A stretch of 64,000 bases of DNA from a bacterium (GCA_030641525.1 DAOWHH010000016.1:1073-65072); one strand, 5' to 3'; shown: positions 26,874 through 62,827, counted from the first letter of the stretch. Numbers and translations: made by a program. The notes: generated by a model not told the origin, from the sequence alone.

Positions 26874-26894
26874 TTGTGACCCTACCGGGAATCG
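26874..26894 (-). repeat. Partial copy of the tRNA-Glu 3' end (about 20 nt)
   Basis: TGTGACCCTACCGGGAATCG matches 27061-27080. Confidence 0.75.
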
Positions 26895-45717: not shown

Positions 45718-45846
45718 ATAGGGGGGGGCATTTTTATATAAAAAGTTTTAAATTTAATCTTTTCATCAATTGATATAAAATTTTAATTTGTTACAATTAA
45801 TCTAATCACGCCTCCTCTGTATTATTATACAGAGGATGGATTATTT

Positions 45847-46371: not shown

Positions 46372-46407
46372 TACTTAAATTTTAACATATTTTCTTACAA
46401 CTTATTT

Positions 46408-47214
46408 TTATATTTCAATTGATATTGGACAATGATCTGAACCAAAAATATCATCATGAATTTCGGCTTTTTTAATTTTTTTCATTAATTTTTTAGAGAC
46501 TACAAAATAATCCAATCTCCATCCTATATTTCTTTCCCTCACCACCCCTCTATATGACCACCAAGAATAACGAATTGTTTCAGGGTAAAGTTCTCTAAAA
46601 GTATCAATCATATTATCTTCCAAAAAATTAGAAATCCATTTTCTCTCCTCAAAAGTAAATCCAGCATTTCCAATATTATCTTTTGGTCGAGCTAAATCAA
46701 TTTCATTATGAGCTACATTGAAATCCCCTGTTATAATTACAGACTTTTTCTTTTCCAATTTCTTGGTTAATTTATGTATTTTTTGATTATATTCAATTTT
46801 ATAATTTAAACGAGAAAGTTCATGATTTGAATTAGGAAAATAATTATTAATTAAATAAAAATCTTTAAATTCTAAGATTTGAGTTCTTCCTTCCTTATCA
46901 AATTTTTCATCTCCAAGACCATTTTTATGAATTAAAACTTTTTTTTCTAATTCTTTTTTTACTAAAATTAAAGTTCCACTATAACCAGGTCTTTGAGCTG
47001 AATTCCAATATTCTATATAGCCAAATTCTGAAAAAATATTTTCTCCAGACAAAGTTAAAGGAAATTCTTTATTTCGAGCTTCTTTAGAAATTTTAACCTC
47101 TTGCAGGCATAAAATATCAGGAAATTCTTTCTTTAAAAAATTTTTAACTTCTGGTTTTTTCAACCAAGCTCTTATTCCATTTATATTCCATGAGTAGATT
47201 TTCATTATGAACAC
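46408..47214 (-). CDS. xth: Exodeoxyribonuclease III (AP endonuclease)
   Basis: MKIYSWNINGIRA N-terminus and EEP-fold motifs. Probable start at the second Met (47205). Confidence 0.85.
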   Translation of the reverse strand: MFIMKIYSWNINGIRAWLKKPEVKNFLKKEFPDILCLQEVKISKEARNKEFPLTLSGENIFSEFGYIEYWNSAQRPGYSGTLILVKKELEKKVLIHKNGLGDEKFDKEGRTQILEFKDFYLINNYFPNSNHELSRLNYKIEYNQKIHKLTKKLEKKKSVIITGDFNVAHNEIDLARPKDNIGNAGFTFEERKWISNFLEDNMIDTFRELYPETIRYSWWSYRGVVRERNIGWRLDYFVVSKKLMKKIKKAEIHDDIFGSDHCPISIEI

Positions 47215-47251
47215 ATTGTATCATAACTGGATTTAGATTTATTCTAATTTA

Positions 47252-47509
47252 TTATTTAGATTTAATTCTTTTAATTAATTTTATGATTTGATAAATAATA
47301 ATTCCTAAAATTCCGCCAAAAATTGCACCCATAATTGAAAATAGGATTAATATAAAGGGTAAAACAGCAATGATACTTAAACCAACCTCATCAGAGTTCA
47401 TAGGAAGCCAAATTGCAAGAATATAAATAACCGAAATTATAATTCCTATAATAGAACCCATTAGTCCTATTAATAAGTTTTTTCCAATTTTTTTGAGGAT
47501 TTTTTTCAT
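47252..47509 (-). CDS. Small membrane protein
   Basis: 85 aa with two TM helices. Confidence 0.35.
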   Translation of the reverse strand: MKKILKKIGKNLLIGLMGSIIGIIISVIYILAIWLPMNSDEVGLSIIAVLPFILILFSIMGAIFGGILGIIIYQIIKLIKRIKSK

Positions 47510-47536
47510 TGTAGTTATAAAGAGAACAGGATATTA

Positions 47537-48295
47537 TTATGGACAGTTTGTGGCTTTACGAAAACCAGCAGATTGAGCTTCTTGTTCGGTGCAGAAATAA
47601 GACTCTCCTTTTCTAGTGTCTATAATGGTTCTTTTGTAATTATCACAACCTGGTAATAAATAGATTTTTCCGTATCCGGCATCGGAGATATTACCTTTAA
47701 TAATGCATTCTGGATCTATTGGTTCGGTGCTTTGTTCTCTCAGGGCTGCGGCTCCTTCACTCACTTGTTCTTGATAATCGCAGTCTTTCCATAATCCTAG
47801 ATTGTCTTCTTGGGCTTGTCTTTGAGCGGTAATGAATAAGTCTCGATATCTATTATCTGGCGGGCTAGATTGGTAAAAGGCAAAGCCATTTCGTATCATA
47901 TAATAATTGACTGGGATATTGTCTTGTTCTGGGTCTTCATAGATGACTATGACATAACGAAGCAATCGTTTATATTTATCTAAACCAGAAATATCTTTTT
48001 CAATATTGATGTTTTTGTCTTTGGTAATTTCAGTTAGAGCTTCTTTTGATTCTTCATAATAGCAGGCTCCTTTTTCGGGGGCATTAATTCCTATGAGTCT
48101 GATTTTTCGTGTTTTTAAAATTCCGGTTTTGATTTTTAAGGTATCACCATCAATGATTTTGGTAATTTTGTGTTCTTGAGTTTCAAAATTAGGCTGTTGT
48201 ATATCAGTGGTTTTAACAATAGTATAGCCAGTTAAACCGCTGGCGGCTAGAAGGGTTGTTATGGCTGAGAGAATAGCTTTTTTCTTTTTTGACAT
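47537..48295 (-). CDS. Secreted thermonuclease (SNase-like)
   Basis: Signal peptide MSKKKKAILSAITTLLAASG and the SNase motif LIGINAPEKG. GC-richer than the core. Confidence 0.7.
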   Translation of the reverse strand: MSKKKKAILSAITTLLAASGLTGYTIVKTTDIQQPNFETQEHKITKIIDGDTLKIKTGILKTRKIRLIGINAPEKGACYYEESKEALTEITKDKNINIEKDISGLDKYKRLLRYVIVIYEDPEQDNIPVNYYMIRNGFAFYQSSPPDNRYRDLFITAQRQAQEDNLGLWKDCDYQEQVSEGAAALREQSTEPIDPECIIKGNISDAGYGKIYLLPGCDNYKRTIIDTRKGESYFCTEQEAQSAGFRKATNCP

Positions 48296-48347: not shown

Positions 48348-48953
48348 TTAAAGATTACTTGAAGTGGAACCAGAAATAAACATATTTAATCCAGTAATAG
48401 CTCCTCCCAAAGCATTTTCCAAATCTTGTACAGAAGATAGATTATTGATATTATTTTCTACATTTCTAGTTTTAGTCGGATTGATATTATTAACTATATC
48501 TTCAAACCATTTATCTAAACCTTGCAAAATTTCATCTGTCATATTACGAACATCAAGTATTAAAACATCATTAAATAGACAACGATGAATTATATTCCCA
48601 TTCAGATCAGGAGAACTAACAAATTTGTAACTCACATATCTTCTACTACTTAAAGTAATTCCTTGATGTAAAATTTTACATCTTATTTCATACCACTCAT
48701 CATCTAATAAAAACGGGCTTGCAACATAATCAGATGCCCACTTTTTATAACGACTTGAATTAGCTAATCCATTTGTTGATTCTAATGCCCCACAGATATC
48801 TGGAAAAATAATAATATAATGTAGTAATGCCCAATAAGCACCAGCTCCTCGCATTAAGGAAATCTGGTCAGTATATACAGAAAATTTTTCTTCAAGTTCT
48901 TCTTTATTCATGGTCTTATTTTTGCTTAATTTTATTAATATATTTTTTATCAA
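48348..48953 (-). CDS. Hypothetical protein, translationally coupled to the upstream helicase (38-bp overlap)
   Basis: 201-aa ORF with no motif. It is the last gene of the AbiH-like/helicase operon. Confidence 0.4.
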   Translation of the reverse strand: MIKNILIKLSKNKTMNKEELEEKFSVYTDQISLMRGAGAYWALLHYIIIFPDICGALESTNGLANSSRYKKWASDYVASPFLLDDEWYEIRCKILHQGITLSSRRYVSYKFVSSPDLNGNIIHRCLFNDVLILDVRNMTDEILQGLDKWFEDIVNNINPTKTRNVENNINNLSSVQDLENALGGAITGLNMFISGSTSSNL

Positions 48954-50544
48954 TAAATTCTAAAATCTTGGGATTTTCATCTTCTAAAGAAATCAATGTT
49001 AGTTTTTCTTTTGCTCTAGTTATACCAACCAAAAATTCGCATATCTTTTGATCAGTAAAATCTGATGTTTCTCGATCTAATATAATTTTATCATTTATAC
49101 CTACATAATAAACAAAATCCATTGAAAGCCCTTTCGAACTCATAACTGTTGTTATCTCTATTTCTGTTGCATCTTTTTTAATTGAGTCAAAACCATTTAT
49201 CATTTTTGAAAGTATATTTTTTAAATTAAAAATCTCACTAAATCTTTTTAACTCTTTGTTATTTAATTTATCTCTACCACTTTTAACTTTTTTAAAAATT
49301 TTAATATCTTCTTCTATATTTTCTTTTATATCTTTTTCTAGACAACTCCAAATTCCTTTTTTTTCTTGATTACTTTGAATTATTATATTTTTCACTTTAT
49401 CCTCAGAAGAAAAATATAGAAACAGAACCTTTCTTAATGATAAATTATCAGTTTTTCTCTCAAAAAGTATCTCAAAAATTTCTACTAAATTTTTGTGCTT
49501 TATTTTATTACATTTTTCTTCTGAAAATAATTCAAAATTAATAACATTAAATCCTTTTTTTATTAAACCTTCATATATTGTTTGTTTTAAATAACTAGGT
49601 ACCAAAACCAAAATCTTTTTTTTAACTCCTTTTTCAATATCTTTTTTTATAGCTTCTGATAATTGATAAATCAACAAGTGGCCTCCACAAGGTACAGAAG
49701 GTATAAAATCAATTTTAGGGTATTTTTCACTAATTTTGTTCTTTTCTTTTATACTATTTGGATATAAAAACTTTTTGTCTAATCGATCTTCTAAATAACC
49801 AGCACCCTTTGAGTTTCTAATTAAATCATTTGTAGTATTAACAATAACTTCCGTGCATCTAAAACAATAATCAAGAGAAAATTCTTCTGTACTAACGTCA
49901 CTATACAAATTTCTTATTTGTTCTGGTTTCGCATTTTTCCAATCATATAGAGATTGATCATCGTCACCAACTAAAACAACTTTATTTTTTTTATTGAGTA
50001 ACTTAATTAATTCATATTCAGATTTATTAAAATCTTGAAATTCGTCTATTAAAATTAAATCGTATTTCGGAATACAAGATTCTTGTTCTGAAAAAATTAA
50101 ATTGATAAGATAAATAATGGAATTAAATGAGTATAATCTTTCTCCATATTTATAAAAAAGAATTCGTTCTTTATAAAAATTTAACTCGTCCTCAGTCAAG
50201 TTATTTTCATGAAATCTTTCTTCATAATTAATATTATCTTTTTTTATAAAAAAATAATCTTCACTTATAACACAATCTAAATTTGAATCAAAATCTACAT
50301 CCCCTATCTTTTTTTTAGCAAAAGCATGTAAAGTCGAAACTTCTACATTTTTAAAATCTTTAAATTCTTGAGATAAATCATCTATCAATTTATTTATAAA
50401 AGAAAGAATTAGTATTTTTTTACCTTTATATTCATCTGATTCTATAATAGTTTTAAAGGTATAACTTTTACCTGTTCCTGGACCAGCTAATCCAACAAAT
50501 AAATTCTTTTCAGATTTTCTTATTTTTTCTAAAATATCAGTCAT
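48916..50544 (-). CDS. Compact UvrD/Rep-type SF1 helicase-like ATPase
   Basis: 542 aa. Walker A LAGPGTGKSYT, motif II ILIDEFQDFN, motif V SSKGLSMDFV, motif VI VGITRAKEKL. Confidence 0.7.
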   Translation of the reverse strand: MTDILEKIRKSEKNLFVGLAGPGTGKSYTFKTIIESDEYKGKKILILSFINKLIDDLSQEFKDFKNVEVSTLHAFAKKKIGDVDFDSNLDCVISEDYFFIKKDNINYEERFHENNLTEDELNFYKERILFYKYGERLYSFNSIIYLINLIFSEQESCIPKYDLILIDEFQDFNKSEYELIKLLNKKNKVVLVGDDDQSLYDWKNAKPEQIRNLYSDVSTEEFSLDYCFRCTEVIVNTTNDLIRNSKGAGYLEDRLDKKFLYPNSIKEKNKISEKYPKIDFIPSVPCGGHLLIYQLSEAIKKDIEKGVKKKILVLVPSYLKQTIYEGLIKKGFNVINFELFSEEKCNKIKHKNLVEIFEILFERKTDNLSLRKVLFLYFSSEDKVKNIIIQSNQEKKGIWSCLEKDIKENIEEDIKIFKKVKSGRDKLNNKELKRFSEIFNLKNILSKMINGFDSIKKDATEIEITTVMSSKGLSMDFVYYVGINDKIILDRETSDFTDQKICEFLVGITRAKEKLTLISLEDENPKILEFIDKKYINKIKQK

Positions 50545-50550
50545 TTTATT

Positions 50551-51402
50551 TCATTTTGTTAGCTTAGAGATATCAATTTTTTCCAAAAAAACTGATTGTA
50601 GAAAGTCAGCCAAATTACTATTGGTTAATTGATCCATTCTATAATCTAGTTCATCCTTAGAATTCTCACCAAAATAATATAAGTCCATATGTAATTTTGA
50701 TATATTTTCGTTTTGACTAAGCCAATTAAATGGGTTTTTAAAGTACATCTCATCAGAAACACCTAATGAATATCCAAATATCGCAATATCGTATCCTTTT
50801 TTTAAATTTTCTGGTAAATCACATCTCTGAAATCCTTCACCTGTTGTCTTTTTAATAAACGTGTGAAATTTAGTTGACTTAGTATCGTCTTGAATTCCAA
50901 ATATTATATTCGACTCAAGATCACCATGAACGTGAATGTGTTTCTCTGCGATATCATTAGAACTCCATCCTTGATTAGCTAAAATATTCTTAACAGTTGA
51001 AGTATAGTTGAAATTATAAATTAAGATGTCAGTAGTTTTGTTGTACTTATCTACCGAGTTATTAGTAATAAAGTTGTATGCTTTTGACTTTTTATTAATT
51101 TTATCATATTTAATACTCTTCAAATATTCTAAAAATTGTTTAGCCAATTCTTTATATTCTTCCTTAAAAGAAGAAAGGATTTTACTACCAAGATTATTGA
51201 TATTGTCTGCGTAATCTTTTAACGCAACTTCTACATCTACCCAATTTTCGAGTTCCGACCGATTTTTTAAATTATTTGCAATTTGATTTCCGTCTTCTAA
51301 GAGTTCATCAAAATATAGACTTTTCAAAAAATGTGAATAAGAGGTTGGTAATCCTAGATTTAAATCAAATCCATTGCCTATGATGATAATTTTCTTTTTC
51401 AT
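50551..51402 (-). CDS. AbiH-like abortive-infection family protein
   Basis: Starts MKKKIIIIGNGFDLNLGLPTSYSHF, the GNGFD N-terminal signature recalled for the AbiH family. The track ORF extends further, from a GTG at 51510, and that extension reads into repeat A1. Ends 6 bp before the helicase start. Confidence 0.55.
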   Translation of the reverse strand: MKKKIIIIGNGFDLNLGLPTSYSHFLKSLYFDELLEDGNQIANNLKNRSELENWVDVEVALKDYADNINNLGSKILSSFKEEYKELAKQFLEYLKSIKYDKINKKSKAYNFITNNSVDKYNKTTDILIYNFNYTSTVKNILANQGWSSNDIAEKHIHVHGDLESNIIFGIQDDTKSTKFHTFIKKTTGEGFQRCDLPENLKKGYDIAIFGYSLGVSDEMYFKNPFNWLSQNENISKLHMDLYYFGENSKDELDYRMDQLTNSNLADFLQSVFLEKIDISKLTK

Positions 51403-51413
51403 TTTTATTTTTT

Positions 51414-51510
51414 TAATGCGGGCAACCTCGTGCTGGAACCGTGGATGGTTAAACTCTGTGAGGTCATTTTTCAATAGATTTATTTTATCAAAATTAAGGT
51501 CTTCGTGCAC
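51414..51510 (-). repeat. Family-A intergenic element, copy 1 (AATGCGGGCAACCTCGTGCTGGAACCGTGG...CGTGCAC)
   Basis: A roughly 95-nt element filling the spacer between the 145-aa gene and the AbiH-like gene. Confidence 0.75.
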
Positions 51511-52348: not shown

Positions 52349-52377
52349 ATATTTAATTATCTTCGTGATAGCTCTAA

Positions 52378-52472
52378 AATGCGGGCAATCTCGAGCTAGA
52401 ACTGTGGGCGGTTAAGTTTGGTAAGGTTGTTTTTAATAAATTCATTCTATCCTTTTGAAGGCCCTCGTGCAC
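52378..52472 (-). repeat. Family-A intergenic element, copy 2
   Basis: AATGCGGGCAATCTCGAGCTAGAACTGTGGGCGGTTAAG...CCCTCGTGCAC, lying between the HNH gene and the 134-aa gene. Confidence 0.75.
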
Positions 52473-52500: not shown

Positions 52501-53421
52501 CTATTTAGAATGTCTATTTCCTTTTCCTAAATTACATTTTTCGCAAAGTGTTTGTAAGTTGTCTAGAATTGTTTTACCGCCTTTTGAAAATGGAATTATA
52601 TGATCGATGTGTAATTTACATTTCGGGTCGGTAGCGGGGCTTGTACCACACTTAATACATTTGAACTTATCCCTACTCAAAATTTTATAACGTAAGCCTA
52701 GTTTAATTTCATGGCGATCTTCGCTTGGTACACTAATTTTTTTAATTTCTTCTTCTGGCTCTTTGACAACTGATGTAATCTCTTTTTGTTCTAACTCGTC
52801 GTCTTTTTTATCCATTTTATTAATAAATGCTTCGAGTGCTTTTCTCCAACTTCCAAAACGTGATTCATATGCTGATGGGGTAATTGCCGATGGATGTTCT
52901 GCCATTTCTCTTAAAAAAGGCTGTCGTCCACAATGTGTCCAGACGTTTAACAGGTTTTCATAATATTCATTTTCGGTAAATCTTTTTCCGTAAGGTGACA
53001 ATTGTAATCCTGCCTTTTTAAGTCCTTTGGACCAAGAACCAAATCTGTAAATAACAGTTGAAGCACTAATCATTTCTGAATTATCCTTTATTTCTTCTTG
53101 GGATATATAATTTTTATCGAGTTTCTCAGCAGCCGTTCGTAATTCTTTCAAAATTTCTTTGTCAGTTAAATTTTTATTTTGCTTGCGCATTTTTTCAGAG
53201 ACTGTACGTCCAGAATATTTATGTCCAAGTTTTGCAACATTAAGAGCTTTTTGCCAACCACCTAATCTTTTTTGAATAGTACCAGAAGTTATTTTCCCAT
53301 GCTCATCATAGTCTTTCCTAGTTAATAATTCTTTACCCACAATTACATCAACACGTTTAATCTCATCTATTATTTCTTTGTCGGAGCAATTTCTTGTTAA
53401 GTTTTTTAGTTCAAATTTCAT
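52501..53421 (-). CDS. HNH endonuclease with three N-terminal helix-repeat modules (homing-endonuclease-like)
   Basis: C-terminal HNH (HIDHIIPFSKGGKTILDNLQTLCEKCNLGKGN). Three repeats of the xFGSWxKAL motif (RLGGWQKALNVAKL, RFGSWSKGLKKAGL, RFGSWRKALEAF). Confidence 0.7.
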   Translation of the reverse strand: MKFELKNLTRNCSDKEIIDEIKRVDVIVGKELLTRKDYDEHGKITSGTIQKRLGGWQKALNVAKLGHKYSGRTVSEKMRKQNKNLTDKEILKELRTAAEKLDKNYISQEEIKDNSEMISASTVIYRFGSWSKGLKKAGLQLSPYGKRFTENEYYENLLNVWTHCGRQPFLREMAEHPSAITPSAYESRFGSWRKALEAFINKMDKKDDELEQKEITSVVKEPEEEIKKISVPSEDRHEIKLGLRYKILSRDKFKCIKCGTSPATDPKCKLHIDHIIPFSKGGKTILDNLQTLCEKCNLGKGNRHSK

Positions 53422-53512
53422 GTTTTTATCCTAACGTAATTACTGGTTTTATAATAGTAAGTTACTAACAAACTACTTCGTGCTAGCACGATGTTGCGGA
53501 GAGGACAGGATT

Positions 53513-53590
53513 GGTCACGAATCACTAAGTATATTTCTTCGCTATCGCTCAAAATCTACTAAGTGTTCTCGACCCCGACTCAGCGACAAG
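53513..53590 (+). repeat. Family-B element, copy 3
   Basis: GGTCACGAATCACTAAGTATATTTCTTCGCTATCGCTCAAAATCTACTAAGTGTTCTCGACCCCGACTCAG. Confidence 0.65.
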
Positions 53591-53696
53591 CACTCGCTCC
53601 GCTCGTCTTGTGTACCGCTTCCGTCTTTCGAATCCTGTCTTCTCTTCTGTATGTTTGAAATCAGGAATACCACTCAATGTGGTATTCCTAATTTCA

Positions 53697-53791
53697 AATG
53701 CGGGCAACCTCGTGCTGGAACCGTGGGGTATCAAGCCCTGTAAGGCGGTTTTAAGCTTTTTAGGACTACTAATCGAAGGATCCTCGTGCAC
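53697..53791 (-). repeat. Family-A intergenic element, copy 3
   Basis: AATGCGGGCAACCTCGTGCTGGAACCGTGGGGTATCAAG...TCCTCGTGCAC, preceded by the hairpin CAGGAATACCAC-TCAA-TGTGGTATTCCT at 53661-53690. Confidence 0.75.
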
Positions 53792-53807
53792 CTTTGTTTT
53801 TTCAAAA

Positions 53808-53847
53808 AGTGACAAAAGTGACACATAATTGATATATAAAATTACAG
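53808..53847. repeat. Family-C 40-nt direct repeat, copy 1 (downstream of the EEP gene)
   Basis: AGTGACAAAAGTGACACATAATTGATATATAAAATTACAG. Confidence 0.7.
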
Positions 53848-53903
53848 TCAATTGTAACTTTTGTGATAAATTATGACTCTAAATTCATTAGTTTCAATAA
53901 CCT

Positions 53904-54833
53904 CTAATCATCATCACCCAAATCCGTTCTAAATCTCGCATATATAGGATAATGATCTGAAACTTTAACAACAAAATCTTGATCGGTAATTCCATATTCT
54001 TGATCGAAATAAAATACTTCGGCGCTGTTCGGAATATATTCATAATTTAATGTACTGTCTCTAATTACAATTCTGTCATATGTCCAGCCAGTTTTAGTCA
54101 TTGTGTCCATATCGTTGGTGATTATCCAATGGTAAGGAAAAGATTTGAAAGTATTAGAGGTGGTGTCTTCGTCAAAATAACTACCGTCAGCATTGAAATC
54201 ACCCATAACAATTATGTCTTTTTCATTAGGATTTTTGTTTAAGATTGAATCAACAACATCTGCAAGATGAGCAATTTCTGAATCAGCATCATCCGGTTTT
54301 ATATGAATTCCTGCAAGTGTGAAATCAAAGTCTTCAGCCCGAAAAGAAGCGATATACGGTTCTCTTTCAAAAATATCATTTAAATCTTCATAAACATAAT
54401 CAGAATTTTCTAAAAATTCCACTTGGCAAGTGTTATAGAAATATGCATAAGCCTCTTTACTACTTGTTCTTCCCAGCCTCTGGCTTTTAATAAAGTTAAA
54501 TTTAGGATATTCAAAATCTTCGTTTATTTTAGTTAGATAATATGAAGCAGTTTCTTCTTTTGAGTCTCTTATTTCTTGAACTAATACAACATCAAACTCT
54601 TTGGTAATTTTCTTTAAGACCTTCATGACATCTTCTTTCGCTCTTTTTGTTTTGCCGAATACTTGAATATTAAAAGATGCTATTTTTATTTCTGATTTCG
54701 GGATTTCATTACATGAAGTAGAAGGAGAAGTGCTGATACCATTACCGTTACCAGACAATATAATAATTAAACCTACCACCAACAGAACAAGTAAGTTAAG
54801 GATATTCTTTTTTGATAAGTGTTTTGTAGACAT
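53904..54833 (-). CDS. Secreted or membrane-anchored endonuclease/exonuclease/phosphatase (EEP, DNase I-like) family nuclease
   Basis: Signal/TM N-terminus. EEP motifs (SFNIQVF, VLVQEIRD, MGDFNAD, SDHYPI). Confidence 0.7.
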   Translation of the reverse strand: MSTKHLSKKNILNLLVLLVVGLIIILSGNGNGISTSPSTSCNEIPKSEIKIASFNIQVFGKTKRAKEDVMKVLKKITKEFDVVLVQEIRDSKEETASYYLTKINEDFEYPKFNFIKSQRLGRTSSKEAYAYFYNTCQVEFLENSDYVYEDLNDIFEREPYIASFRAEDFDFTLAGIHIKPDDADSEIAHLADVVDSILNKNPNEKDIIVMGDFNADGSYFDEDTTSNTFKSFPYHWIITNDMDTMTKTGWTYDRIVIRDSTLNYEYIPNSAEVFYFDQEYGITDQDFVVKVSDHYPIYARFRTDLGDDD

Positions 54834-54881
54834 GAGTTTATTTTAACATATATAAATTAAAGGATTCTTGAGTATCTTTGT

Positions 54882-54922
54882 AGTGACAAAAAGTGACACA
54901 TAATCGATATATAAAGTTACAG
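54882..54922. repeat. Family-C direct repeat, copy 2 (upstream of the EEP gene)
   Basis: AGTGACAAAAAGTGACACATAATCGATATATAAAGTTACAG. Confidence 0.7.
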
Positions 54923-55408
54923 CTTCATGTCACTTTTAATTTCGTTATTATCAAGTACCCAACCGTAAACCTCGACTATGCCAATCTTACTTTTATCAAA
55001 GTCTGGCAACACATTTGGTAGCTTTCCTATTGAGATTAATATTCCAAATTTATAAAAATAAGGATCTTTAAAAAAAGTTTCATTAATCTTGTCGAGATCT
55101 TCTTGAAGATCTTTAGTTTTTGGATTTTTCTTTGCTTGAAAAACAACTAAGTTGTCTGAATGATTACTCCTCTTGTGAATAGCAATATCAGGACGTTTTC
55201 TGTCATTCTTTATAAGTTCAACATCAACATTATGTTTAGAAAACATTTCATTAAGTTTACTCTGAAGATGTGAGCATATATTCCACTCTGTTGTTTTCCA
55301 TATCTCGGGCTCAGTATCTGATATTTGTTTACAAGCAAGTGTTGTTTTGTTTAGAATTTCTTGGATTTCCATATTTTTGTTTTGAATTAAATATTTCTTT
55401 TCATCCAA
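54917..55408 (-). CDS. Small PD-(D/E)xK-like protein, paralogue of 21268-21681
   Basis: Shares TEWNI..H ... VDV ... KRPDI.IHKR.NH.DN ... LDKI with the R-M-linked paralogue. Confidence 0.5.
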   Translation of the reverse strand: MDEKKYLIQNKNMEIQEILNKTTLACKQISDTEPEIWKTTEWNICSHLQSKLNEMFSKHNVDVELIKNDRKRPDIAIHKRSNHSDNLVVFQAKKNPKTKDLQEDLDKINETFFKDPYFYKFGILISIGKLPNVLPDFDKSKIGIVEVYGWVLDNNEIKSDMKL

Positions 55409-55668
55409 TCAGTAACCTTTTTATCAACTCCCATAGTTCCCCAATCATCATCTGTAACATTCATTACTAATAATTCATCATTAGAGTCAATAAATTTCTT
55501 GAGATGATCTCTGATTTCAGAAGCTGAACTTTCAGAAACAACAAACCAAGTAGACTCTAGTGGTTTTGCCCATGAACCAAGCTTTTTAATTTGATCAATA
55601 AGACGTTTATATTCTGATGATGTTTCTCCTTTGTTTAAATCGTAAGCGATTAAAAATGTTTGTAACAT
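55387..55668 (-). CDS. Hypothetical small protein with a Cas2/VapD-like sequence pattern (weak)
   Basis: 93 aa. FLIAYDL ... LGSW ... STWFVVSE ... DELLVMNV resembles the Cas2 pattern hhhYDh...G.R.Q.SVF.C...DS.hhY.h. No cas1 and no array nearby. Confidence 0.3.
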   Translation of the reverse strand: MLQTFLIAYDLNKGETSSEYKRLIDQIKKLGSWAKPLESTWFVVSESSASEIRDHLKKFIDSNDELLVMNVTDDDWGTMGVDKKVTDWMKRNI

Positions 55669-55673
55669 AGTTT

Positions 55674-55919
55674 TTAAAATTTAGTATCTTTAGGTGGGCA
55701 TGGATCATTGCCTGGTTTTACTGTGTCACTATCACGAATAGGACCACCGTTTGGTTTATGAATTCTTACTTCACCACCACCAGATTTAGCTGATAATTCT
55801 TTTGCGATTTTTTCGGCTTCTTTTTGGGTGCTAGCTGTAGCAGAAGCACGATTTGCTCCGGCTTTGATAGCTTTCCAAACGCCAGAACCTTTTGGATTTG
55901 TTACATGGTAATTTGCCAT
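55674..55919 (-). CDS. DUF2188 (YjzC-like) family protein
   Basis: MANYHVTNPKGSGVWKAIKAGANRASATASTQKEAEKIAKELSAKSGGGEVRIHKPNGGPIRDSDT matches the DUF2188 consensus. Confidence 0.65.
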   Translation of the reverse strand: MANYHVTNPKGSGVWKAIKAGANRASATASTQKEAEKIAKELSAKSGGGEVRIHKPNGGPIRDSDTVKPGNDPCPPKDTKF

Positions 55920-55925
55920 ATGTTT

Positions 55926-56543
55926 TTAATATAGATCTTCTGGAAGTACTGCAACAACTACCCCTTGGATCATACAATTATCTGTTAATACGATAGGTCT
56001 GTGTTCTTTGTTCTTTGATTTTGGTCGAAGAATAATAGCATCACGAGTCCTCTCAAAAATTTTGACAGTTGCTTCATCATTAATAAGAGCAACTACCTTA
56101 TCTCCATTGTCTGCTGTATTTTGCTGTCTTATAAGAAGCAAGTCGCCATTATTGATTCCATCTGCATCCATTGAATCACCTAACGCTCGGAGAAAAAAAT
56201 ATTTTGATCCCTTTTGAACCATTCTTGTTGAAACAGGAATGTAGGTCTGTATATTTTCTTCTGCAAAGATTGGAGTTCCGCAGGCAACAGAGCCAACGAG
56301 GGGGACATCTACAATACTTACAGAATTTTCTTTATAAGTATTCACGAGTACTAAGTTTCTCCCTTTTTTCTTTATAAGACCAGATGCAATAAGTCGATTA
56401 ATTACAAGACTTGCTGACCTTGGAGATCTTCCACCCGTTACTTCGTTAATTTCACGAAGGGTAGGGCTTTCACCATAATGGATAATCTTGTTGCGGATAA
56501 GGGCAAAAGCTTTTTTGTCTTTGTCACTAAGGTTATTTGTCAT
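55926..56543 (-). CDS. lexA: LexA repressor (S24 peptidase)
   Basis: N-terminal LexA wHTH (LIRNKIIHYGESPTLREINEVTGGRSPRSASLVINRLIASGLIKKKG), cleavage-site region VACG, and catalytic Ser/Lys (GDSM ... K). Start taken at the MTNNLSDK Met; the track ORF begins at 56600. Confidence 0.85.
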   Translation of the reverse strand: MTNNLSDKDKKAFALIRNKIIHYGESPTLREINEVTGGRSPRSASLVINRLIASGLIKKKGRNLVLVNTYKENSVSIVDVPLVGSVACGTPIFAEENIQTYIPVSTRMVQKGSKYFFLRALGDSMDADGINNGDLLLIRQQNTADNGDKVVALINDEATVKIFERTRDAIILRPKSKNKEHRPIVLTDNCMIQGVVVAVLPEDLY

Positions 56544-56616
56544 GGTATAAATAGTATAAATTATTTTATATAATAATGCAAGTATTTTGTTTAAAACCAA
56601 CTCTGTTAAACCACAA

Positions 56617-57309
56617 CTAAGTATTATTTTCTTCTACAACATAATCAATTTTCGTTCTTGCTCCATCTAATACAGGATCATCAAGAGAATACTTTTGGAC
56701 AGGCACAATACCCCTTCCTGAGTATTCTAGTGTTTTATACAAATACCCAAGAAAAGATCCTGTGTACCGATAACAACGTATACATCCTTTTATTTTATCC
56801 TCTACATCATCAGTATAACCTTTCCATTTTTTCAGATAATAATAACGATCAATCCAATCATCAACTGTGTACGTGAGCAAACCAACTAATTCTTGTTGAG
56901 CTAAGACATTACCTTTTTGATACAATCTTACAAGTTTAACTAGAATTTTGTCCCTAGAGGCAAAATCTTTCTCATCAAGTGAAGTAATAAAAGTATATAG
57001 CTTATCTTTATGTTTAGTTAAGATAAGATTAACCTCGTCTTTGTTTTCATATGGTTTTACTACTTTTCGCCTGTACCTTACCCAACGTCTCTGAAATTCT
57101 CTTTCTAGAAGACTGGTAACTCTATCCCAATCTATTTCATCTGTTTCAGTTCTGATATTTTTATGTATAAATCTATATGCACGAGGTACATGTTGAACTA
57201 TCCATGAGCTACTGATTTTTTTAGGTTGTTTTTCACGAATAGTTTTATTTAATTCTTTTATAATACAATTAAGATTCATTGTGAAATTATACACGGGATT
57301 GATTGACAT
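56617..57309 (-). CDS. Hypothetical protein
   Basis: 230-aa ORF upstream of lexA with no motif recognised. Confidence 0.35.
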   Translation of the reverse strand: MSINPVYNFTMNLNCIIKELNKTIREKQPKKISSSWIVQHVPRAYRFIHKNIRTETDEIDWDRVTSLLEREFQRRWVRYRRKVVKPYENKDEVNLILTKHKDKLYTFITSLDEKDFASRDKILVKLVRLYQKGNVLAQQELVGLLTYTVDDWIDRYYYLKKWKGYTDDVEDKIKGCIRCYRYTGSFLGYLYKTLEYSGRGIVPVQKYSLDDPVLDGARTKIDYVVEENNT

Positions 57310-57354
57310 AATATATGGACCCTATATTATTAAAGGTAAGAGTTCTTGAAGAAA

Positions 57355-57585
57355 ACCACATATTGAGCGCATCTCCTCGAGCGCTACCATGTAATCGGCA
57401 GTACCAATTACATTAACGAGGCCGTCTAAGGAAAAACCTAAGACGAAGAGATTTACATCGGCAGAACCGGAGTGAATCTAGGTAACAAAAAGTAATAGTC
57501 TGATATTTCAGACTAGGTGTTTTTGTTTTCTAGATTTGTTCCGGACAAAATGAAAACACCATTTAAGGGGTGTTTTTTTTCGTTT
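57355..57585 (+). ncRNA. Candidate structured non-coding RNA with two tandem intrinsic terminators
   Basis: GC-richer 230-nt ORF-free stretch containing AGCGC-(n10)-GCGCT and repeated ATCGGCAG(T/A)ACC segments. It ends with TAGTCTGATATTTCAGACTA+T-run (57496-57530) and AACACC-ATTTAAGG-GGTGTT+T8 (57555-57580), just upstream of the ParB-MTase gene. Confidence 0.35.
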
Positions 57586-57618
57586 ACTCTTAATATTAAA
57601 AATTAAGAAATAAACAAC

Positions 57619-58902
57619 ATGTATAAATTAAAATGGACAACGGAAAAACGTCGGATTAATGATTTGGTGCCTTTCGAGAGAAACCCTAGGTCAATTAGCC
57701 CAAAACAATTAAAAGATTTAACAAAGAGTCTTAAAAAATTCAATCTTGTTGAGATTCCTGCAATTGATATAGACAACAAAATACTTGCAGGACACCAACG
57801 CCTAAAAGTATTGCAATTACTTGGACGAGGTGACGAGGAAATAGATGTACGAATTCCAAACCGTAAACTCACTAAAAAAGAATCGGAACAATACCTTATA
57901 TCAAGCAACGTTCTTGGTGGTGATTGGGATTTTGAAAAACTTAAATCATTTGATCTAGATTTGTTGATTGATATTGGTTTTGACCAAGTCGACCTCTCTC
58001 ATCTTTGGAATGATGAGTTAGAAGTGCAAGACGAAGATTTTGAAGTTGAAAAAGAATTAAAGCAGATTAAGAAACCTAAAACAAAAATAGGTGATCTTAT
58101 TTATCTTGGCCCCCATAAATTAATTTGTGGTGATTCCACTGATCCAAAAAATTTAAAAAGATTATTTGGTAACGAACAAGCTTCAATGATTTATTCTGAT
58201 CCTGTATACAACATCTCAATTGATTACAACAAAGGTATTGGGGGAAAACAGAGTTATGGTGGGACCGTTAATGACAACAAGTCTGAAGTTGATTATAGGG
58301 ATCTCATCAAACAAAGTCTTGAGAACGCACTGTCGGTAGCAAAGAAGGATACACATATTTTCTACTGGTGTGATCAAACATACATTTGGTTAATTCAAGA
58401 ACTATATCGAGAACTTGGGATAACAAACAAAAGAGTGTGTTTATGGATTAAAAACGGACACAACCCTGTTCCGAGTGTGGCATTTAATAAGTGCTACGAA
58501 CCATGTACTTATGGTGTGCGAGGAAAACCATACATTACTAAGAATATTCAAAACCTCAATGAAGTTTTGAATAAAGAGATTACTACAGGTAATAACTTAC
58601 TTGAAGAAACTCTTGATGAACTCGATGTATGGCTTGTTAAACGTCTTTCTCACAAAGACTATGAACATGCAACAAGCAAGCCACCAAAGTTACACGAAAA
58701 GGCAATTCGTAGATGTACAAAACCCGGAGATATTATTCTTGATTCATTTTCAGGATCAGGAAGTACTTTAATTGCAGGAGAGCAATTAAAACGCAAAGTC
58801 TACGCGGTCGAACTAGAACCTATCTTTTGTGATCTTGTGATTAAAAGATATGAAAAATTAACAGGCGTTAATGCAAAAATAGAAAATGTCAAAGAAAAAT
58901 AA
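57619..58902 (+). CDS. ParB-like nuclease domain fused to a DNA (N4/N6) methyltransferase
   Basis: N-terminal ParB/Srx domain (FERNPRSISPKQLKDL ... AGHQRLKV). C-terminal methylase motifs (SDPVYNI; DSFSGSGST). This is a phage-typical architecture. Confidence 0.75.
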   Translation: MYKLKWTTEKRRINDLVPFERNPRSISPKQLKDLTKSLKKFNLVEIPAIDIDNKILAGHQRLKVLQLLGRGDEEIDVRIPNRKLTKKESEQYLISSNVLGGDWDFEKLKSFDLDLLIDIGFDQVDLSHLWNDELEVQDEDFEVEKELKQIKKPKTKIGDLIYLGPHKLICGDSTDPKNLKRLFGNEQASMIYSDPVYNISIDYNKGIGGKQSYGGTVNDNKSEVDYRDLIKQSLENALSVAKKDTHIFYWCDQTYIWLIQELYRELGITNKRVCLWIKNGHNPVPSVAFNKCYEPCTYGVRGKPYITKNIQNLNEVLNKEITTGNNLLEETLDELDVWLVKRLSHKDYEHATSKPPKLHEKAIRRCTKPGDIILDSFSGSGSTLIAGEQLKRKVYAVELEPIFCDLVIKRYEKLTGVNAKIENVKEK

Positions 58903-59290
58903 AGTTAGAGATTCCTTTCTTGATGAATTAAAGAAAATTCCTATTGTTCAAGTTGCCTGTGAAAAAACAAGAGTTTCTCGCAATAGTATTTATAGGTGGA
59001 AAAAGGAAGATAAGGAGTTTTGCAAAGAAATGGAAGAAGCTTTAGCTGAAGGTGAAGCATTAGTTAACGATATGAGTGAAAGTCAATTACTGACACTTAT
59101 TAAAGAGAAAAACTTCTCTGCTATAAGCTTCTGGCTTCGACATAGAAATTCAAAGTTTAAAAACAAAGTTGAAGTTACCACAAAAATAGGAATTGATGAC
59201 GACGATCTTACGCCCGAACAAGAAACTATTGTAAAAAGAGCTTTAGAGCTTGCAACTTCAACTAAACCTAATGAAAAAAATCATGACTGA
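58886..59290 (+). CDS. Terminase small subunit-like HTH protein
   Basis: 134 aa. HTH (VACEKTRVSRNSIYRWKKEDKEF). Overlaps the upstream and downstream genes. Confidence 0.55.
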   Translation: MSKKNKVRDSFLDELKKIPIVQVACEKTRVSRNSIYRWKKEDKEFCKEMEEALAEGEALVNDMSESQLLTLIKEKNFSAISFWLRHRNSKFKNKVEVTTKIGIDDDDLTPEQETIVKRALELATSTKPNEKNHD

Positions 59291-60788
59291 TGAAACGCAA
59301 AAAATTATTGAAATAATGCTAAAGGATATAAAAGTGAGAAGAAGTATTGCGAGAGAAAATCACTTATTATTTTTCAGTGCTTACTTTGGACATTATATGG
59401 AATATGAATTTGCAGATTTTCACCGAGAAATGTTTGATTTAAGCTCTAATGAAAATATTCAAACACTTGTAATCACCGCGGCTCGAGGAATTGGTAAATC
59501 AACTATTCTTAATATGAGTTTAGCTATTTGGTCGATACTTGGAAGACGAAGAAAAAAGTTTGTTATTATCCTCAGTCATACTCAAGCAAAAGCACGACAA
59601 CATTTCAATAACTTAAGAAAAGAGTTTGAAGAAAATAAATTACTTCAAAGTGATTTAGGACCTTTCAAAGAAGACAGTGGTGAATGGGGATCATCTTTGG
59701 TCCTTCCTCATTACGATGCTCGTATAACTTTTGCTTCAACCGAGCAAAGTATCCGTGGGATGCGTCACAAACAACATAGACCTGATTTGATTATTGCAGA
59801 CGACTTAGACGATAATGATTCGATAAAGACATTGGACGGAAGAAATAAAACATATGACTGGCTAACGAAAGATATTATTCCTGCAGGAGAAACAAATACA
59901 AAGTTGGTTATAGTTGGAACACTTCTTCATGAAGATTCAATCATGATGAGACTAAAGAAAGAAATATTAGAAGGAAAAAGAACTGGTGAGTATAGAGAAT
60001 ATCCACTTGTCGATGATAATGGATTAATACTTTGGAAAAGTAAGTACCCAAATAAATTAGCTTTGGAAGCAGAGAGGTTAAGAATTGGTAATGAAAAGTC
60101 TTGGTGCCAAGAATATCTTTTAAAGATTGTTTCTGATGCTGATAGGGTTATCCACCCAGAATGGATTCGATATCATGAAGAAATTCCTAGTAGGACACCA
60201 GAAAATAGTTATCGCTATACTTTTACAGCAATTGACTTAGCAATTTCAGAAAGAGAACGGGCTGATTGTACTGCTATGGTTTCAGCTAGTGTGTATGGTT
60301 ATGGTGAAAATATGAGAATATATATTTTGCCAAATCCAATTAATGAGCGTTTGGATTTTCCAAGTGCAATAGAAAAAGCTAAATTACTTTCATTAAGTCT
60401 TTCTCATAATGGAAAGAAAACAAGACTTGTTATTGAGGATAATATGTATCAAAGGGCTTTTCCACAAATGCTACAAAAAGATAGATACCCTGCAGAGGGA
60501 GTCCAGTCTGTCGGAGATAAGCGAACTCGCTTAACACTCATAAACCCAACAGTGAAAGCGGGGCAAGTATTATTTCCAAAAGAAGGAACTGAAACTTTGA
60601 TTCAACAACTTATTGGTTTTGGAGTAGAGCGATACGATGACTTAGCTGATGCTTTTGCAATTCTTGTTGGAGAAGTTATGAAAAATAACCCCAACAGATC
60701 ATTTAGTGAAAGTGCTCAAAAAATGATAGAGATAAATGGGTGGGATAAAGAAGATGGAGAGATTCCGATTCTTTATAAGCAATATTAA
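59250..60788 (+). CDS. Terminase large subunit
   Basis: 512 aa. ATPase Walker A-like LVITAARGIGKST and Walker B DLIIADDLDD. C-terminal RNase-H-like nuclease (TAIDLAISERERADCTAM). Confidence 0.8.
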   Translation: MQLQLNLMKKIMTDETQKIIEIMLKDIKVRRSIARENHLLFFSAYFGHYMEYEFADFHREMFDLSSNENIQTLVITAARGIGKSTILNMSLAIWSILGRRRKKFVIILSHTQAKARQHFNNLRKEFEENKLLQSDLGPFKEDSGEWGSSLVLPHYDARITFASTEQSIRGMRHKQHRPDLIIADDLDDNDSIKTLDGRNKTYDWLTKDIIPAGETNTKLVIVGTLLHEDSIMMRLKKEILEGKRTGEYREYPLVDDNGLILWKSKYPNKLALEAERLRIGNEKSWCQEYLLKIVSDADRVIHPEWIRYHEEIPSRTPENSYRYTFTAIDLAISERERADCTAMVSASVYGYGENMRIYILPNPINERLDFPSAIEKAKLLSLSLSHNGKKTRLVIEDNMYQRAFPQMLQKDRYPAEGVQSVGDKRTRLTLINPTVKAGQVLFPKEGTETLIQQLIGFGVERYDDLADAFAILVGEVMKNNPNRSFSESAQKMIEINGWDKEDGEIPILYKQY

Positions 60789-61151
60789 TTATTTTTTACA
60801 AATATGATCTCGTATATGATTTACGAGTTTCTTTACGCTATCATCTTGTCTTATAATCCATTTCATTTTTACTTTATTACCAGAAGCAAAAAATGAAATA
60901 GTATGACCCATTATTCCTTTACCTACTTCAATTGAAGATATGTTCGAGTATGGAAATACTTCAAGTTCGTAACCAATAAGTTTTTTTGCAAAGAAGACCA
61001 AGCGATCATCTGTTGTTAAAAAAATACCTTTCCGTGCTGTTTTTTGACCAAACCTTTCAATTTCATATGAGCCAAGAACTACAGTAAGAATATTTTCATT
61101 TATATCTAAATGTTCTTTTACCTTTTCTGTTAACTTGTTTATTTTTGACAT
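60789..61151 (-). CDS. Bacterial PH-domain-like protein
   Basis: 120-aa ORF whose pattern resembles bPH family proteins. Confidence 0.35.
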   Translation of the reverse strand: MSKINKLTEKVKEHLDINENILTVVLGSYEIERFGQKTARKGIFLTTDDRLVFFAKKLIGYELEVFPYSNISSIEVGKGIMGHTISFFASGNKVKMKWIIRQDDSVKKLVNHIRDHICKK

Positions 61152-61507: not shown

Positions 61508-62827
61508 ATGGAAACGAATACATTTTCACAACAAACCAAGTCGGCAGTAATTCCAGACATTAAGATGAAGTATTGCCTATATGCTCGAAAAAGTACTGAA
61601 TCAGACGAACGACAAGCCCTGTCTATTGATTCTCAAGTCAAAGAGATGTTACAGATAGCAGAAAGAGAGGGTCTCGAGATTATAGATATTAGAAGAGAAT
61701 CAAAATCAGCTAAAGACTCGAATAATAGACCTGTATTTAAAGAATTACTTCGTGATATATCGGAAGGACGATTTAACGCTATCCTCACATGGGCACCTGA
61801 TAGATTATCAAGAAATGCAGGTGATCTTGGTTCTGTTGTTGATTTAATGGATGCAAAAAAACTTATAGGTATTCGTACTTATGGGCAAACTTTTTCTAAT
61901 TCTCCAAACGAAAAATTTCTCTTGATGATTCTTTGTTCTCAGGCAAAACTAGAAAATGATAATAGAGGTATAAATGTAAAAAGAGGATTACGAACAAGAT
62001 GTGAAATGGGATTATGGCCGACCTGTCCACCCACTGGGTATTTTAAAGAAAAAAGAATGGATCGAAAATGTGAATGTCTTATTGATGAAGAAAGAGCCCC
62101 TGTTATAAAACAAATATTTGAGAAAGTGGCTTATGAGAAATGGTCTGGAAGAAAAATTTATCACTGGCTTAGGTTTGATTTGAATTTTAGAACAGAAGCT
62201 GGAAAGAAACATTTTAGTCTAGGTAATATTTATCGGATGTTAGAGAATCCATTTTATTATGGAACTTTTGAATATCCCAGAGGATCAGGCAATTGGTACA
62301 AAGGAAAACACGAGCCAATAATCACCAAAGAACTTTTTGATTTAGTACAAGGTCAAGTAAAGAATTCTCAACTTGTTAGAAAAGAAAATATTGAATTTGC
62401 CTTTACCAAAATTATGAAATGCGGACTTTGTGGATCTGGAATTTCAGCAACTGAAAAATTCAAAAAATTAAAAAGTGGAGATTTTAATCGACATGTTTAC
62501 TATGGTTGTACAAAAGCGAAAGATAAATATTGTAAATGTGGGTTTATAAACGAAAACAATCTTATTCAACAGCTACAGAACTTGGTTGATGAGATACAGA
62601 TGGACGAAACAGGCGTTCTTAAGAAAATAAAAGCGGAGGTGGCTCGCTATAAAAAATTCCAAGCAACCCTATTGGGGAATGAGATGGATACCGTGGTGTC
62701 TGACGTAGATACTAGGGATTATGTGAAATTCCTGATTAAGAACGGCACTCTTGAAGAGAAGCGAGAGATTATGTTGTGCTTCACGTCTAGTATTAGCTTA
62801 AAAAATGGAAAAATTGGCTTAAAATAA
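61508..62827 (+). CDS. Large serine recombinase (integrase/resolvase family)
   Basis: N-terminal resolvase catalytic domain (YARKSTESDERQALSIDSQ ... LTWAPDRLSRN). Recombinase domain and zinc ribbon (CGLCGS ... YYGCTKAKDKYC). Probable start at MKYCLYARKST. Confidence 0.85.
   Translation: METNTFSQQTKSAVIPDIKMKYCLYARKSTESDERQALSIDSQVKEMLQIAEREGLEIIDIRRESKSAKDSNNRPVFKELLRDISEGRFNAILTWAPDRLSRNAGDLGSVVDLMDAKKLIGIRTYGQTFSNSPNEKFLLMILCSQAKLENDNRGINVKRGLRTRCEMGLWPTCPPTGYFKEKRMDRKCECLIDEERAPVIKQIFEKVAYEKWSGRKIYHWLRFDLNFRTEAGKKHFSLGNIYRMLENPFYYGTFEYPRGSGNWYKGKHEPIITKELFDLVQGQVKNSQLVRKENIEFAFTKIMKCGLCGSGISATEKFKKLKSGDFNRHVYYGCTKAKDKYCKCGFINENNLIQQLQNLVDEIQMDETGVLKKIKAEVARYKKFQATLLGNEMDTVVSDVDTRDYVKFLIKNGTLEEKREIMLCFTSSISLKNGKIGLK

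Follow-up and report, generated by a model that had tools for sequence, protein, structure and literature searches.

The promoter PRM of phage lambda, which serves an accessory operon headed by the repressor gene cI, is of the leaderless type. Bacteria of the Candidate Phyla Radiation (CPR, Patescibacteria) are uncultured and have tiny genomes, and how they acquire and control defence systems is largely obscure. They are reported to be unusually rich in such systems. The small protein families DUF2188 and DUF3892 have been reported in operons under the control of the DNA-damage-sensing CapH/CapP pair, and DUF2188 has also been reported beside cyclic-oligonucleotide-based anti-phage signalling systems (CBASS) and in a Thoeris defence island. 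Here, we describe a lexA-headed locus in a 64,000-nt stretch of bacterial DNA (GCA_030641525.1 DAOWHH010000016.1:1073-65072, hereafter the window, with positions counted from its first letter). Five open reading frames (ORFs), all on the minus strand, lie within positions 53904-56600 and encode a LexA-type repressor, a DUF2188 protein, a Cas2-like protein, a 151-aa protein and a DNase I homologue. By analogy, this locus would work most like the lambda cI-rexAB immunity operon.

A preliminary description, made from the sequence alone, had read the five genes as a LexA-headed operon ending in a secreted nuclease. We propose instead, with a probability of about 70%, that the repressor belongs to a small mobile element widespread in Patescibacteria and heads swappable anti-phage or nuclease cargo, the element being satellite-like and integrative and the position behind lexA a hotspot for defence cargo. 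In the literature searched, the coverage of which was incomplete, we came across no account of defence loci headed by LexA in CPR bacteria, or of CPR elements that combine a serine recombinase with a terminase.

LexA-type repressor and its genomic context

The first ORF is a lexA gene by all the sequence tests applied, as the preliminary description had held, and encodes a self-cleaving repressor made up of a winged helix-turn-helix (wHTH) domain and an S24 peptidase domain (55926-56543, minus strand). It matches Peptidase_S24 (PF00717) at 1.3e-29, the NCBIfam lexA equivalog TIGR00498 at 145.7 bits (cutoff 110.95) and, marginally, LexA_DNA_bind (PF01726) at 24.2 bits (cutoff 23.7), and it aligns over its full length with Escherichia coli LexA (7b5g, 8e-21, residues 6-200). 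The cleavage site C88-G89 and the catalytic dyad S124 and K161 are in register with A84-G85, S119 and K156 of E. coli LexA and are invariant across an alignment of 13 element repressors; the Ser nucleophile is carried by a GDSM motif and the Lys by an ATVK motif. A Cys-Gly cleavage site is of the UmuD type. We place the start at ATG 56543, which is used by the gene callers and fits a conserved promoter ending 9 nt before it; the alternative TTG 56600, chosen in the preliminary description, merely lengthens the mechanical ORF.

Genomic context was fetched for LexA relatives with 94, 86, 85, 80, 77, 74, and 73% identity and for distant S24 repressors with 51, 47, 33, 32, and 31% identity. Wherever the DNA reaches that side, every fetched lexA relative is divergent from genes for a ParB-N6/N4 methyltransferase and the small terminase subunit TerS; the contig of the L034 group starts a short way before lexA and does not include the divergent arm. 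The closer relatives usually have the large terminase subunit TerL too, and a large serine recombinase closes most of the elements. The host flanks differ in every case, with ABC transporters, type IV pilus genes, copper ATPases, zinc transporters, the dcw cluster, or an aminoacyl-tRNA synthetase. One metagenome-assembled genome (MAG), GCA_035323965.1, carries two elements on different contigs, with identities of 32% between the repressors, 57% between the recombinases, and 53% between the methyltransferases. We therefore assign this LexA to a family of putatively mobile elements rather than to the single-copy chromosomal regulators, in line with the preliminary suggestion that it may be part of a mobile element's control circuit and not the host SOS regulator. 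The idea of a five-gene module did not survive the same comparison, in which lexA alone is constant and its neighbors are not conserved.

The sequence of the window corresponds to a contig from a metagenome (ENA ERZ23498471), and both LexA and the 151-aa protein have their named relatives in Patescibacteria (Paceibacterota and Nomurabacteria). The DNA of the five-gene region gave no match among 50,697 phage records, no TerL relatives were found in IMG/VR, and a LexA scan of IMG/VR returned one contig only. When the L043/L047 element was followed from host gene to host gene, ~15 kb were measured between the recombinase and a tRNA, and no portal, capsid, or tail genes were found across the whole element. 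It has a second variable slot, which holds a type III restriction-modification system and a diversity-generating retroelement. The slot between recombinase and TerL was observed as a cargo site in L031 (932-3847), L043 (3041-5952), and L047 (8288-12325), with diversity-generating retroelements (reverse transcriptase, bAvd and a 317-aa target-like gene) and type III restriction-modification genes.

In the window, the element would span ~11-14.5 kb, from ~48.3-51.4 kb to ~62.8 kb. Its proposed backbone consists of a large serine recombinase, a LOOT RNA, a variable slot, TerL, TerS, and the ParB-methyltransferase, with no capsid, portal, or tail genes. The divergent operon (57619-60788, plus strand) encodes the ParB-N6/N4 DNA methyltransferase, TerS, and TerL (phrog_498 4e-83, phrog_4044, and phrog_38 5e-73), so that the lexA group does lie divergent to phage terminase genes, as stated in the preliminary description, with a 230-aa ORF of no known family (56617-57309, minus strand) between the two arms. 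This position is variable and is occupied by unrelated genes in other elements. The large serine recombinase, conserved in related elements, marks the element end (61508-62827, plus strand), and a variable-slot gene with a bacterial PH domain (60789-61151, minus strand) lies downstream of the LOOT RNA. The GC shift noted earlier is real and modest, with a GC content of 0.33-0.39 over 52-64 kb as compared with ~0.24-0.31 nearby.

The LOOT RNA (RF03000; 61216-61343, minus strand) is divergent from the recombinase gene. Matches at 61-88 bits (cutoff 46.4) were obtained across 10 elements. In eight of them, the window and seven others (L009 1722-1847, L037 3150-3275, L038 1980-2112, L028 6673-6805, L024 5965-6091, L044 4728-4850, and L046 5456-5584), the RNA and the serine recombinase gene are close, divergently oriented neighbors, with the RNA on the upstream side, and the variable-slot gene comes directly after the RNA on the same strand; in L006 (7591-7720) and L010 (7822-7949), it occupies the methyltransferase-lexA intergenic region. 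A functional study of LOOT RNA was not found in the same, incompletely covered literature.

Variable cargo behind lexA

The genes that follow lexA change from one element to another. In the window, these are the DUF2188, Cas2-like, and 151-aa genes, followed by further cassettes. The closest relative, L009, is the only one in which DUF2188 and the Cas2-like gene recur together, and they are followed there by genes for two unknown proteins. L031 carries a CD-NTase and Cap15; L034 a DUF3892-like 69-aa protein, a CD-NTase, and Cap15; and L037 a DUF3892-like protein, a cyclase with PycTM, DUF2726, and SIR2. Two ThsB-type TIR proteins and an 8xMP membrane protein are found in L043, and a metallo-beta-lactamase-fold protein, an unknown protein, and Shedu (SduA) in L044. 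L006, L010, and L028 share a Cas2-like protein, a SMODS cyclase, and a 2TM effector, L024 combines a Cas2-like protein with Shedu, L038 has a 650-aa protein, a membrane protein, and the 151-aa protein, and L046 has two unknowns. The CBASS calls made with PADLOC are strong (cyclase 3.6e-139, 2TM effector 1.2e-69). We propose a cargo hotspot behind lexA, which in the sister elements would receive CBASS, Pycsar-like, TIR/Thoeris-like, Shedu, or unknown genes.

The first three genes behind lexA in the window largely correspond to what had been proposed from the sequence. The DUF2188 protein (55674-55919, minus strand) was correctly named, as testified by matches to PF09954 (2.7e-18) and to the PADLOC candidate PDC-S16 (1.5e-17). 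The next protein, of 93 aa (55387-55668, minus strand), had been given a Cas2/VapD-like pattern; it matches PF09827 barely above the cutoff (24.5 bits vs 23.8) and phrog_1090 at 8e-24. Its AlphaFold2 (AF2) model, with a pLDDT (predicted local distance difference test) of 83, retrieved Cas2 as 27 of the 30 best PDB matches, together with the Cas2-fold antitoxin GhoS. Judged from this model, the protein has the Cas2 fold, ferredoxin-like with a conserved Asp after strand 1, and the motif Y9-D10-L11 at this place is invariant in the family, which counts 2,715 representatives when clustered at 50%. Membership in the Cas2 adaptation family is rejected: Cas1 is not annotated at any of the fetched annotated loci, and a search of the window gave no tandem array of the CRISPR type.

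Outside the CPR elements, the Cas2-like gene is found as a lone gene in the lysogeny region of Enterococcus and Staphylococcus temperate phages, on the strand of the repressor; it is also alone in Pasteurella phage Pmp11, in which the opposite strand carries the annotated CI-like repressor at a distance of ~3 kb. The Bacteroidota Cas2-like genes adjoin TIR, GmrSD, or SMODS genes. In one of these loci, from an Agriterribacter MAG (L019, 9221-11300), the gene immediately behind a distant Cas2-like gene encodes a SMODS (CBASS-type) cyclase, the arrangement seen in CPR L006, L010, and L028. The pairing of Cas2-like and CBASS genes thus recurs across phyla.

The third gene encodes a protein of 151 aa (54917-55372, minus strand) that appears to be an independent cargo gene and has no Pfam or other family match. 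It had been described as a 163-aa PD-(D/E)xK-like protein; the length probably has to be revised, since ATG 55372 is favored by the homologues, 19 of 19 of which measure 141-158 aa, mostly 150-151. With this start, there is no overlap with the Cas2-like gene. The structural model presents an alpha-beta-beta-beta-alpha-beta core of the restriction-endonuclease type, with the conserved residues RPD62...Q79-x-K81 (E in one homologue), and Foldseek gave weak matches (E 0.02-0.1) to Cap4, EcoRV, BbvCI, and EndoMS, which lends weak support to a PD-(D/E)xK-like fold. Elsewhere, the 151-aa gene has three different upstream partners and never adjoins a DNase I gene. A toxin-antitoxin pair formed with the Cas2-like protein was considered and rejected: the upstream partners of the 151-aa gene elsewhere are unrelated, and the Cas2-like gene usually occurs without it. 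A paralogue of 137 aa (7e-20), encoded in the window at 21268-21681, has a type III restriction-modification system (21-26 kb) as its neighbor. It belongs to a second defence-type cluster near tRNA genes (20802-26229, minus strand), which also comprises an N6/N4 methyltransferase (594 aa), a ResIII helicase-nuclease (918 aa), and a wHTH protein.

Boundary repeats and stacked cassettes

The end of the cargo is marked, in 12 of 13 element types including that of the window, by a ~160-nt repeat on the lexA strand; no copy was detected in L010. Part A of this repeat is a palindrome with 9-bp arms, AAAGTTACA-N6-TGTAACTTT, followed by TGTGTCACTTTTGTCACTTTTT. Part B, of ~95 nt, contains two direct sub-repeats ~74 nt apart, which co-vary between elements: GCACGAGG occurs twice, or CTCGAGAAGG twice, or CGAGACGCG is combined with CGAGACCGC. 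Part B was also considered as a structured RNA, and RNAalifold returned 0 pairs on both strands, with 12 and then with 17 copies. We consider it a DNA-level site because it has no consensus RNA fold on either strand.

Four copies are present in the window, all on the minus strand and all recovered by an independent repeat finder as well. Copy 1 (54882-54936), between the 151-aa and DNase I genes, retains part A only, part B being decayed; it consists of the palindrome AAAGTGACA-N6-TGTAACTTT, the left arm of which overlaps the stop codon of the 151-aa gene, and of GTCAC repeats. Copy 2 (53694-53861), after the DNase I gene, is complete, with part A at 53803-53861 and part B at 53694-53791. Copies 3 (52375-52472) and 4 (51412-51510) are represented by part B and follow, respectively, an HNH gene and a pair of ORFs of 134 and 145 aa, copy 4 lying before an AbiH gene. 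L009, L038, and L046 have two copies each, and in L034 two genes are inserted between part A and part B. What had looked like one operon in the window is a stack of cassettes: lexA/DUF2188/Cas2-like/151-aa; DNase I; HNH; two small ORFs; and AbiH with a GajB-like helicase.

The DNase I homologue (53904-54833, minus strand) belongs to the endonuclease/exonuclease/phosphatase (EEP) family (PF03372, 6e-11) and matches human and bovine DNase I at 7.5e-41 over the whole mature enzyme (residues 48-298). It carries the motifs SFNIQ, QEIRD, GDFNA, and SDHYP, which we take to be those of DNase I. Its lysine-rich N terminus is followed by ~17 hydrophobic residues, and the protein is therefore predicted to be exported or membrane-anchored, in agreement with the signal-peptide nuclease named in the preliminary description. 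Its supposed place at the end of the lexA operon has to be given up. Because a boundary repeat lies between it and the 151-aa gene, the DNase I gene forms a separate cassette, a single gene held between two repeats, and further cassettes follow; we see it as the second cassette of the stack rather than as an operon end. The gaps from lexA to the 151-aa gene are indeed short, as first stated (6 nt between LexA and DUF2188, 5 nt between DUF2188 and the Cas2-like gene, and 14 nt before the 151-aa gene), the overlap once assigned at 55408/55387 disappears with ATG 55372, and 83 nt, which hold the conserved palindrome and repeat, precede the nuclease gene.

The DNase I gene could also be nutritional or host-interaction cargo, neither anti-phage nor LexA-controlled, the product of which degrades DNA at the surface and serves nucleotide scavenging by the CPR cell. 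CPR bacteria depend on external nucleotides, the gene forms a separate cassette behind a hairpin and a repeat, other exported-type nucleases are encoded nearby (SNase, a second EEP protein, and NYN), and the homologue has a weak match to the membrane nuclease MnuA. However, it sits inside the array, between two boundary repeats, where the sister elements hold defence genes, and read-through from lexA is possible, as the hairpin is weak and AU-rich. We regard this role as a serious possibility that falls somewhat short of even odds. The nearby nuclease-rich stretch (45847-48295, minus strand) encodes the SNase (252 aa), the second EEP-family protein (268 aa), and the NYN RNase (174 aa) just before a transketolase; SNase and NYN genes are also observed near the element in L038 and L040.

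The following cassette encodes an HNH endonuclease with three homing-endonuclease-associated repeats, identified by profile matches (52501-53421, minus strand). A HEARO/omega-RNA-like guide for this gene was considered and discarded, with no Rfam match and an HNH protein score of 43 bits against the IscB model cutoff of 175. The stretch between copy 2 and the HNH gene, 53478-53693 (minus strand), is non-coding over ~215 nt and has ~45% GC; a perfect hairpin of 20 bp is found at ~53647-53703, and a stem resembling a terminator at the end of the stretch (53478-53491). Folding of the whole 401-nt region gave z = -7.1, and the region is kept in L009 (9739-10092) with no Rfam match; on the GC-rich gap 53300-54000, Rfam at permissive E-values returned a chance miRNA match only. 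An RNA gene lying before the HNH gene is a possible reading of this stretch. Short matches to its 3' part are found at 26713-26965, adjoining tRNA-Glu.

Beyond copy 4 lie an AbiH-family protein (PF14253) and a GajB-like UvrD helicase (48916-51405, minus strand; PADLOC GajB 2.4e-29). There is no GajA, and the GC content of this region, 0.24-0.27, is the lowest in the window. The pair is either the last cargo unit or an adjacent island, and the two genes may form a two-gene system.

Promoter, candidate operator and predicted control

The lexA gene has a promoter of the leaderless type, conserved across elements, with TTGCAT, 17 nt, TATACT, and 9 nt before the ATG (56553-56581, minus strand). It has no Shine-Dalgarno sequence, and its layout is that of a leaderless transcript. 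The ~42 nt preceding the ATG are kept in seven elements regardless of the upstream gene. An 18-bp near-palindrome, GTATAAA-N4-TTTATAC (56554-56571, minus strand), overlaps the spacer and the -10 and is followed by a second TTTATAC; to judge from its sequence and position, it is the obvious candidate for a LexA operator. Because the candidate operator overlaps the -10, negative autoregulation is predicted. The part A palindrome of the boundary repeat, GTTACA-N6-TGTAAC, was also considered as a LexA operator; the promoter regions lack it, and it occurs in the window as often as expected by chance.

We propose that lexA heads a polycistronic unit of lexA, DUF2188, Cas2-like, and 151-aa genes, expressed from its own conserved promoter; no terminator-like site was found between lexA and the 151-aa gene. 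RecA bound to single-stranded DNA, arising on DNA damage or phage replication, would trigger self-cleavage of LexA. This would lift repression at the palindrome over the -10 and raise expression of the cargo, and may also turn on the recombination and packaging genes of the element.

The same layout could work the other way round. Following the logic of lambda cI-rexAB, the protein would be a LexA-like immunity repressor and the cargo would ride on the sole transcript of the quiescent state, to be switched off rather than on when the repressor is cleaved. Here too, as at lambda PRM, accessory genes follow an S24 repressor gene in an operon with a leaderless-type promoter, and the Cas2-like gene is known from the lysogeny regions of phiFL1A, phiSP44-1, and Pmp11. 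However, a candidate operator over the -10 predicts negative autoregulation, no upstream activating site is seen, and the protein scores as a LexA equivalog rather than as a CI-type repressor. Cargo silencing upon cleavage is thus possible but clearly less probable than the induction proposed above.

Other promoter-like sites were observed in the window. A strong one (TTGACA, 16 nt, TATTAT, 11/12 matches), in the region 57303-57618, faces the methyltransferase-terminase operon. Behind it comes a leader of ~290 nt, in which two bidirectional terminator-like hairpins (57496-57515 and 57552-57577) could provide attenuation or antitermination control of the backbone operon. The promoter-like site resembles the promoter part of two ~80-nt direct repeats (45657-45736 and 45770-45849, plus strand), each of which combines a promoter-like TTGACA...TATAAT with a G/C-rich perfect hairpin.

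Assessment of the mobile-element model and remaining alternatives

Several points weigh against a mobile, LexA-switched defence element. The lexA-promoter palindrome is represented by a single site in the window, with no second copy, including before the methyltransferase operon. No excised or empty-site form of the element was seen, no replication gene or primase was recognised in the scanned genes, and the satellite lifestyle is argued by analogy. TerL is missing from the more distant elements. None of the window cargo (DUF2188, Cas2-like, 151-aa, and DNase I) is a proven defence gene. The window LexA could double as the cell's only LexA; inside the 64-kb window, no second lexA or S24 gene was found. 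Finally, the comparison covers about a dozen of the 1,334 LexA relatives, that is, 13 element types counting that of the window. The wider claim of a large Patescibacteria-specific family of satellite-like elements (more than 1,000 LexA relatives), in which an immune locus built of cassettes is controlled by a self-cleaving LexA and the cassettes have a dedicated DNA site of ~160 nt as their boundary, appears to us evenly balanced.

How the stacks arise bears on the next alternative, an integron-like system in which the ~160-nt A/B repeats are recombination sites and the serine recombinase moves single cassettes and builds arrays behind a LexA-controlled promoter. The four copies of the window each close a one- or two-gene unit, three other elements have two copies each, in L034 genes lie between part A and part B, and part B, with its two co-varying direct repeats ~74 nt apart and no RNA structure, behaves as a DNA-level signal. 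Yet there is no tyrosine IntI and no extended hairpin of the attC type, serine recombinases require only ~40-50 bp sites, no circular cassette was seen, and homologous recombination between conserved flanks or tandem integrations could equally build such arrays. We consider this system unlikely, as well as its central premise that cassettes move singly by site-specific recombination at the repeat.

The locus could also be a decayed prophage, with backbone genes as relics and LexA kept as the local regulator of a chromosomal defence island, which would account for the lack of structural genes and for the absence of TerL from some elements. However, the same compact order and intact, full-length ORFs are found at 31-94% repressor and 52-57% backbone identity, in different hosts and at different sites; decay would not preserve these features, and a remnant is therefore quite unlikely. 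A host SOS module, that is, the cell's own LexA with four conserved SOS-induced genes ending in a secreted nuclease, agrees with the equivalog score and with the lack of another S24 gene in the window but is largely refuted, and very improbable, given variable neighbors next to a constant backbone, differing host flanks, two heteroimmune copies in one MAG, and a boundary repeat before the nuclease gene.

The mobile-element model would provide a concrete vehicle and a switch for the acquisition of defence by CPR bacteria, with a LexA-type repressor directly before CBASS, Pycsar-like, TIR, and Shedu genes. The fixed slot, after lexA and before the boundary repeat, could be used as a filter for new defence genes; it already points to several candidates, namely the family of stand-alone Cas2-fold proteins, DUF2188/DUF3892, the nuclease-like protein of 151 aa, and the pairs of unknown genes in L009, L044, and L046. 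The model further gives LOOT, an orphan family of Rfam, a place beside the recombinase gene of a defined mobile element. If the wider family claim stated above holds, this would be the first biological context of LOOT RNA, and CPR bacteria would have an immune organ that is exchangeable and wired to the SOS response.

A further feature of the window, apart from this locus, is a perfect 24-nt tandem repeat of 3.1 copies (TCCTAAATTAAAACTTTGTTTTAA; 15832-15905), intergenic and upstream of an ORF at 15989.

Comparison with known systems

The Cas2-like protein shares with the ferredoxin-fold nucleases Cas2, VapD, and GhoS its fold and the acidic residue after strand 1, but has neither Cas1 nor a CRISPR array beside it and represents a separate family, phrog_1090, of ~90-aa proteins from prophage lysogeny modules and defence islands.

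Integrons likewise have promoterless-looking cassettes stacked behind a control region linked to LexA, with a conserved repeat at the end of each cassette. Here, there is no IntI, attI, or attC fold, the repeat measures ~160 nt with direct sub-repeats, and LexA is encoded in cis and does not act on intI. With its serine recombinase and its lack of an attC fold, the window locus falls outside the integrons.

With CapH/CapP, and with BrxR/CapW, the locus has in common a DNA-damage-responsive, proteolysis-based repressor beside CBASS and DUF2188/DUF3892 operons, and the likeness extends to the DUF2188 or DUF3892-like 69-aa protein directly after LexA. In contrast, a single self-cleaving S24 repressor takes the place of the pair of a helix-turn-helix (HTH) protein and a metallopeptidase, is co-directional with the cargo instead of divergent from it, and is part of a mobile-element backbone. 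The absence of an ImmA/IrrE-type metallopeptidase means that the window locus is not a CapH/CapP system.

Phage satellites, such as the phage-inducible chromosomal islands (PICI), the P4-like elements, and the P2/P4 hotspots, are similar in being small integrative elements with a recombinase, a master repressor, TerS, no capsid genes, and a fixed locus for the exchange of anti-phage genes. The element of the window has an integrase, a master repressor, and packaging genes and lacks virion structural genes, the combination by which PICI-like elements are recognised. It differs in having a serine rather than a tyrosine integrase, a TerL that is often present, a ParB-methyltransferase and LOOT in its backbone, no recognised primase or replication module, a host from the CPR phylum, and no known helper phage.

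In lambda cI-rexA-rexB, transcribed from PRM, a self-cleaving S24 repressor also comes first, the accessory or exclusion genes lie downstream, the mRNA is of the leaderless type, and the unit is divergent from the other genes of the element. The repressor of the window is, however, a LexA equivalog with a wHTH rather than a CI-type HTH domain, and it stands before hypervariable cargo that is closed by a conserved repeat, in an element devoid of virion genes.

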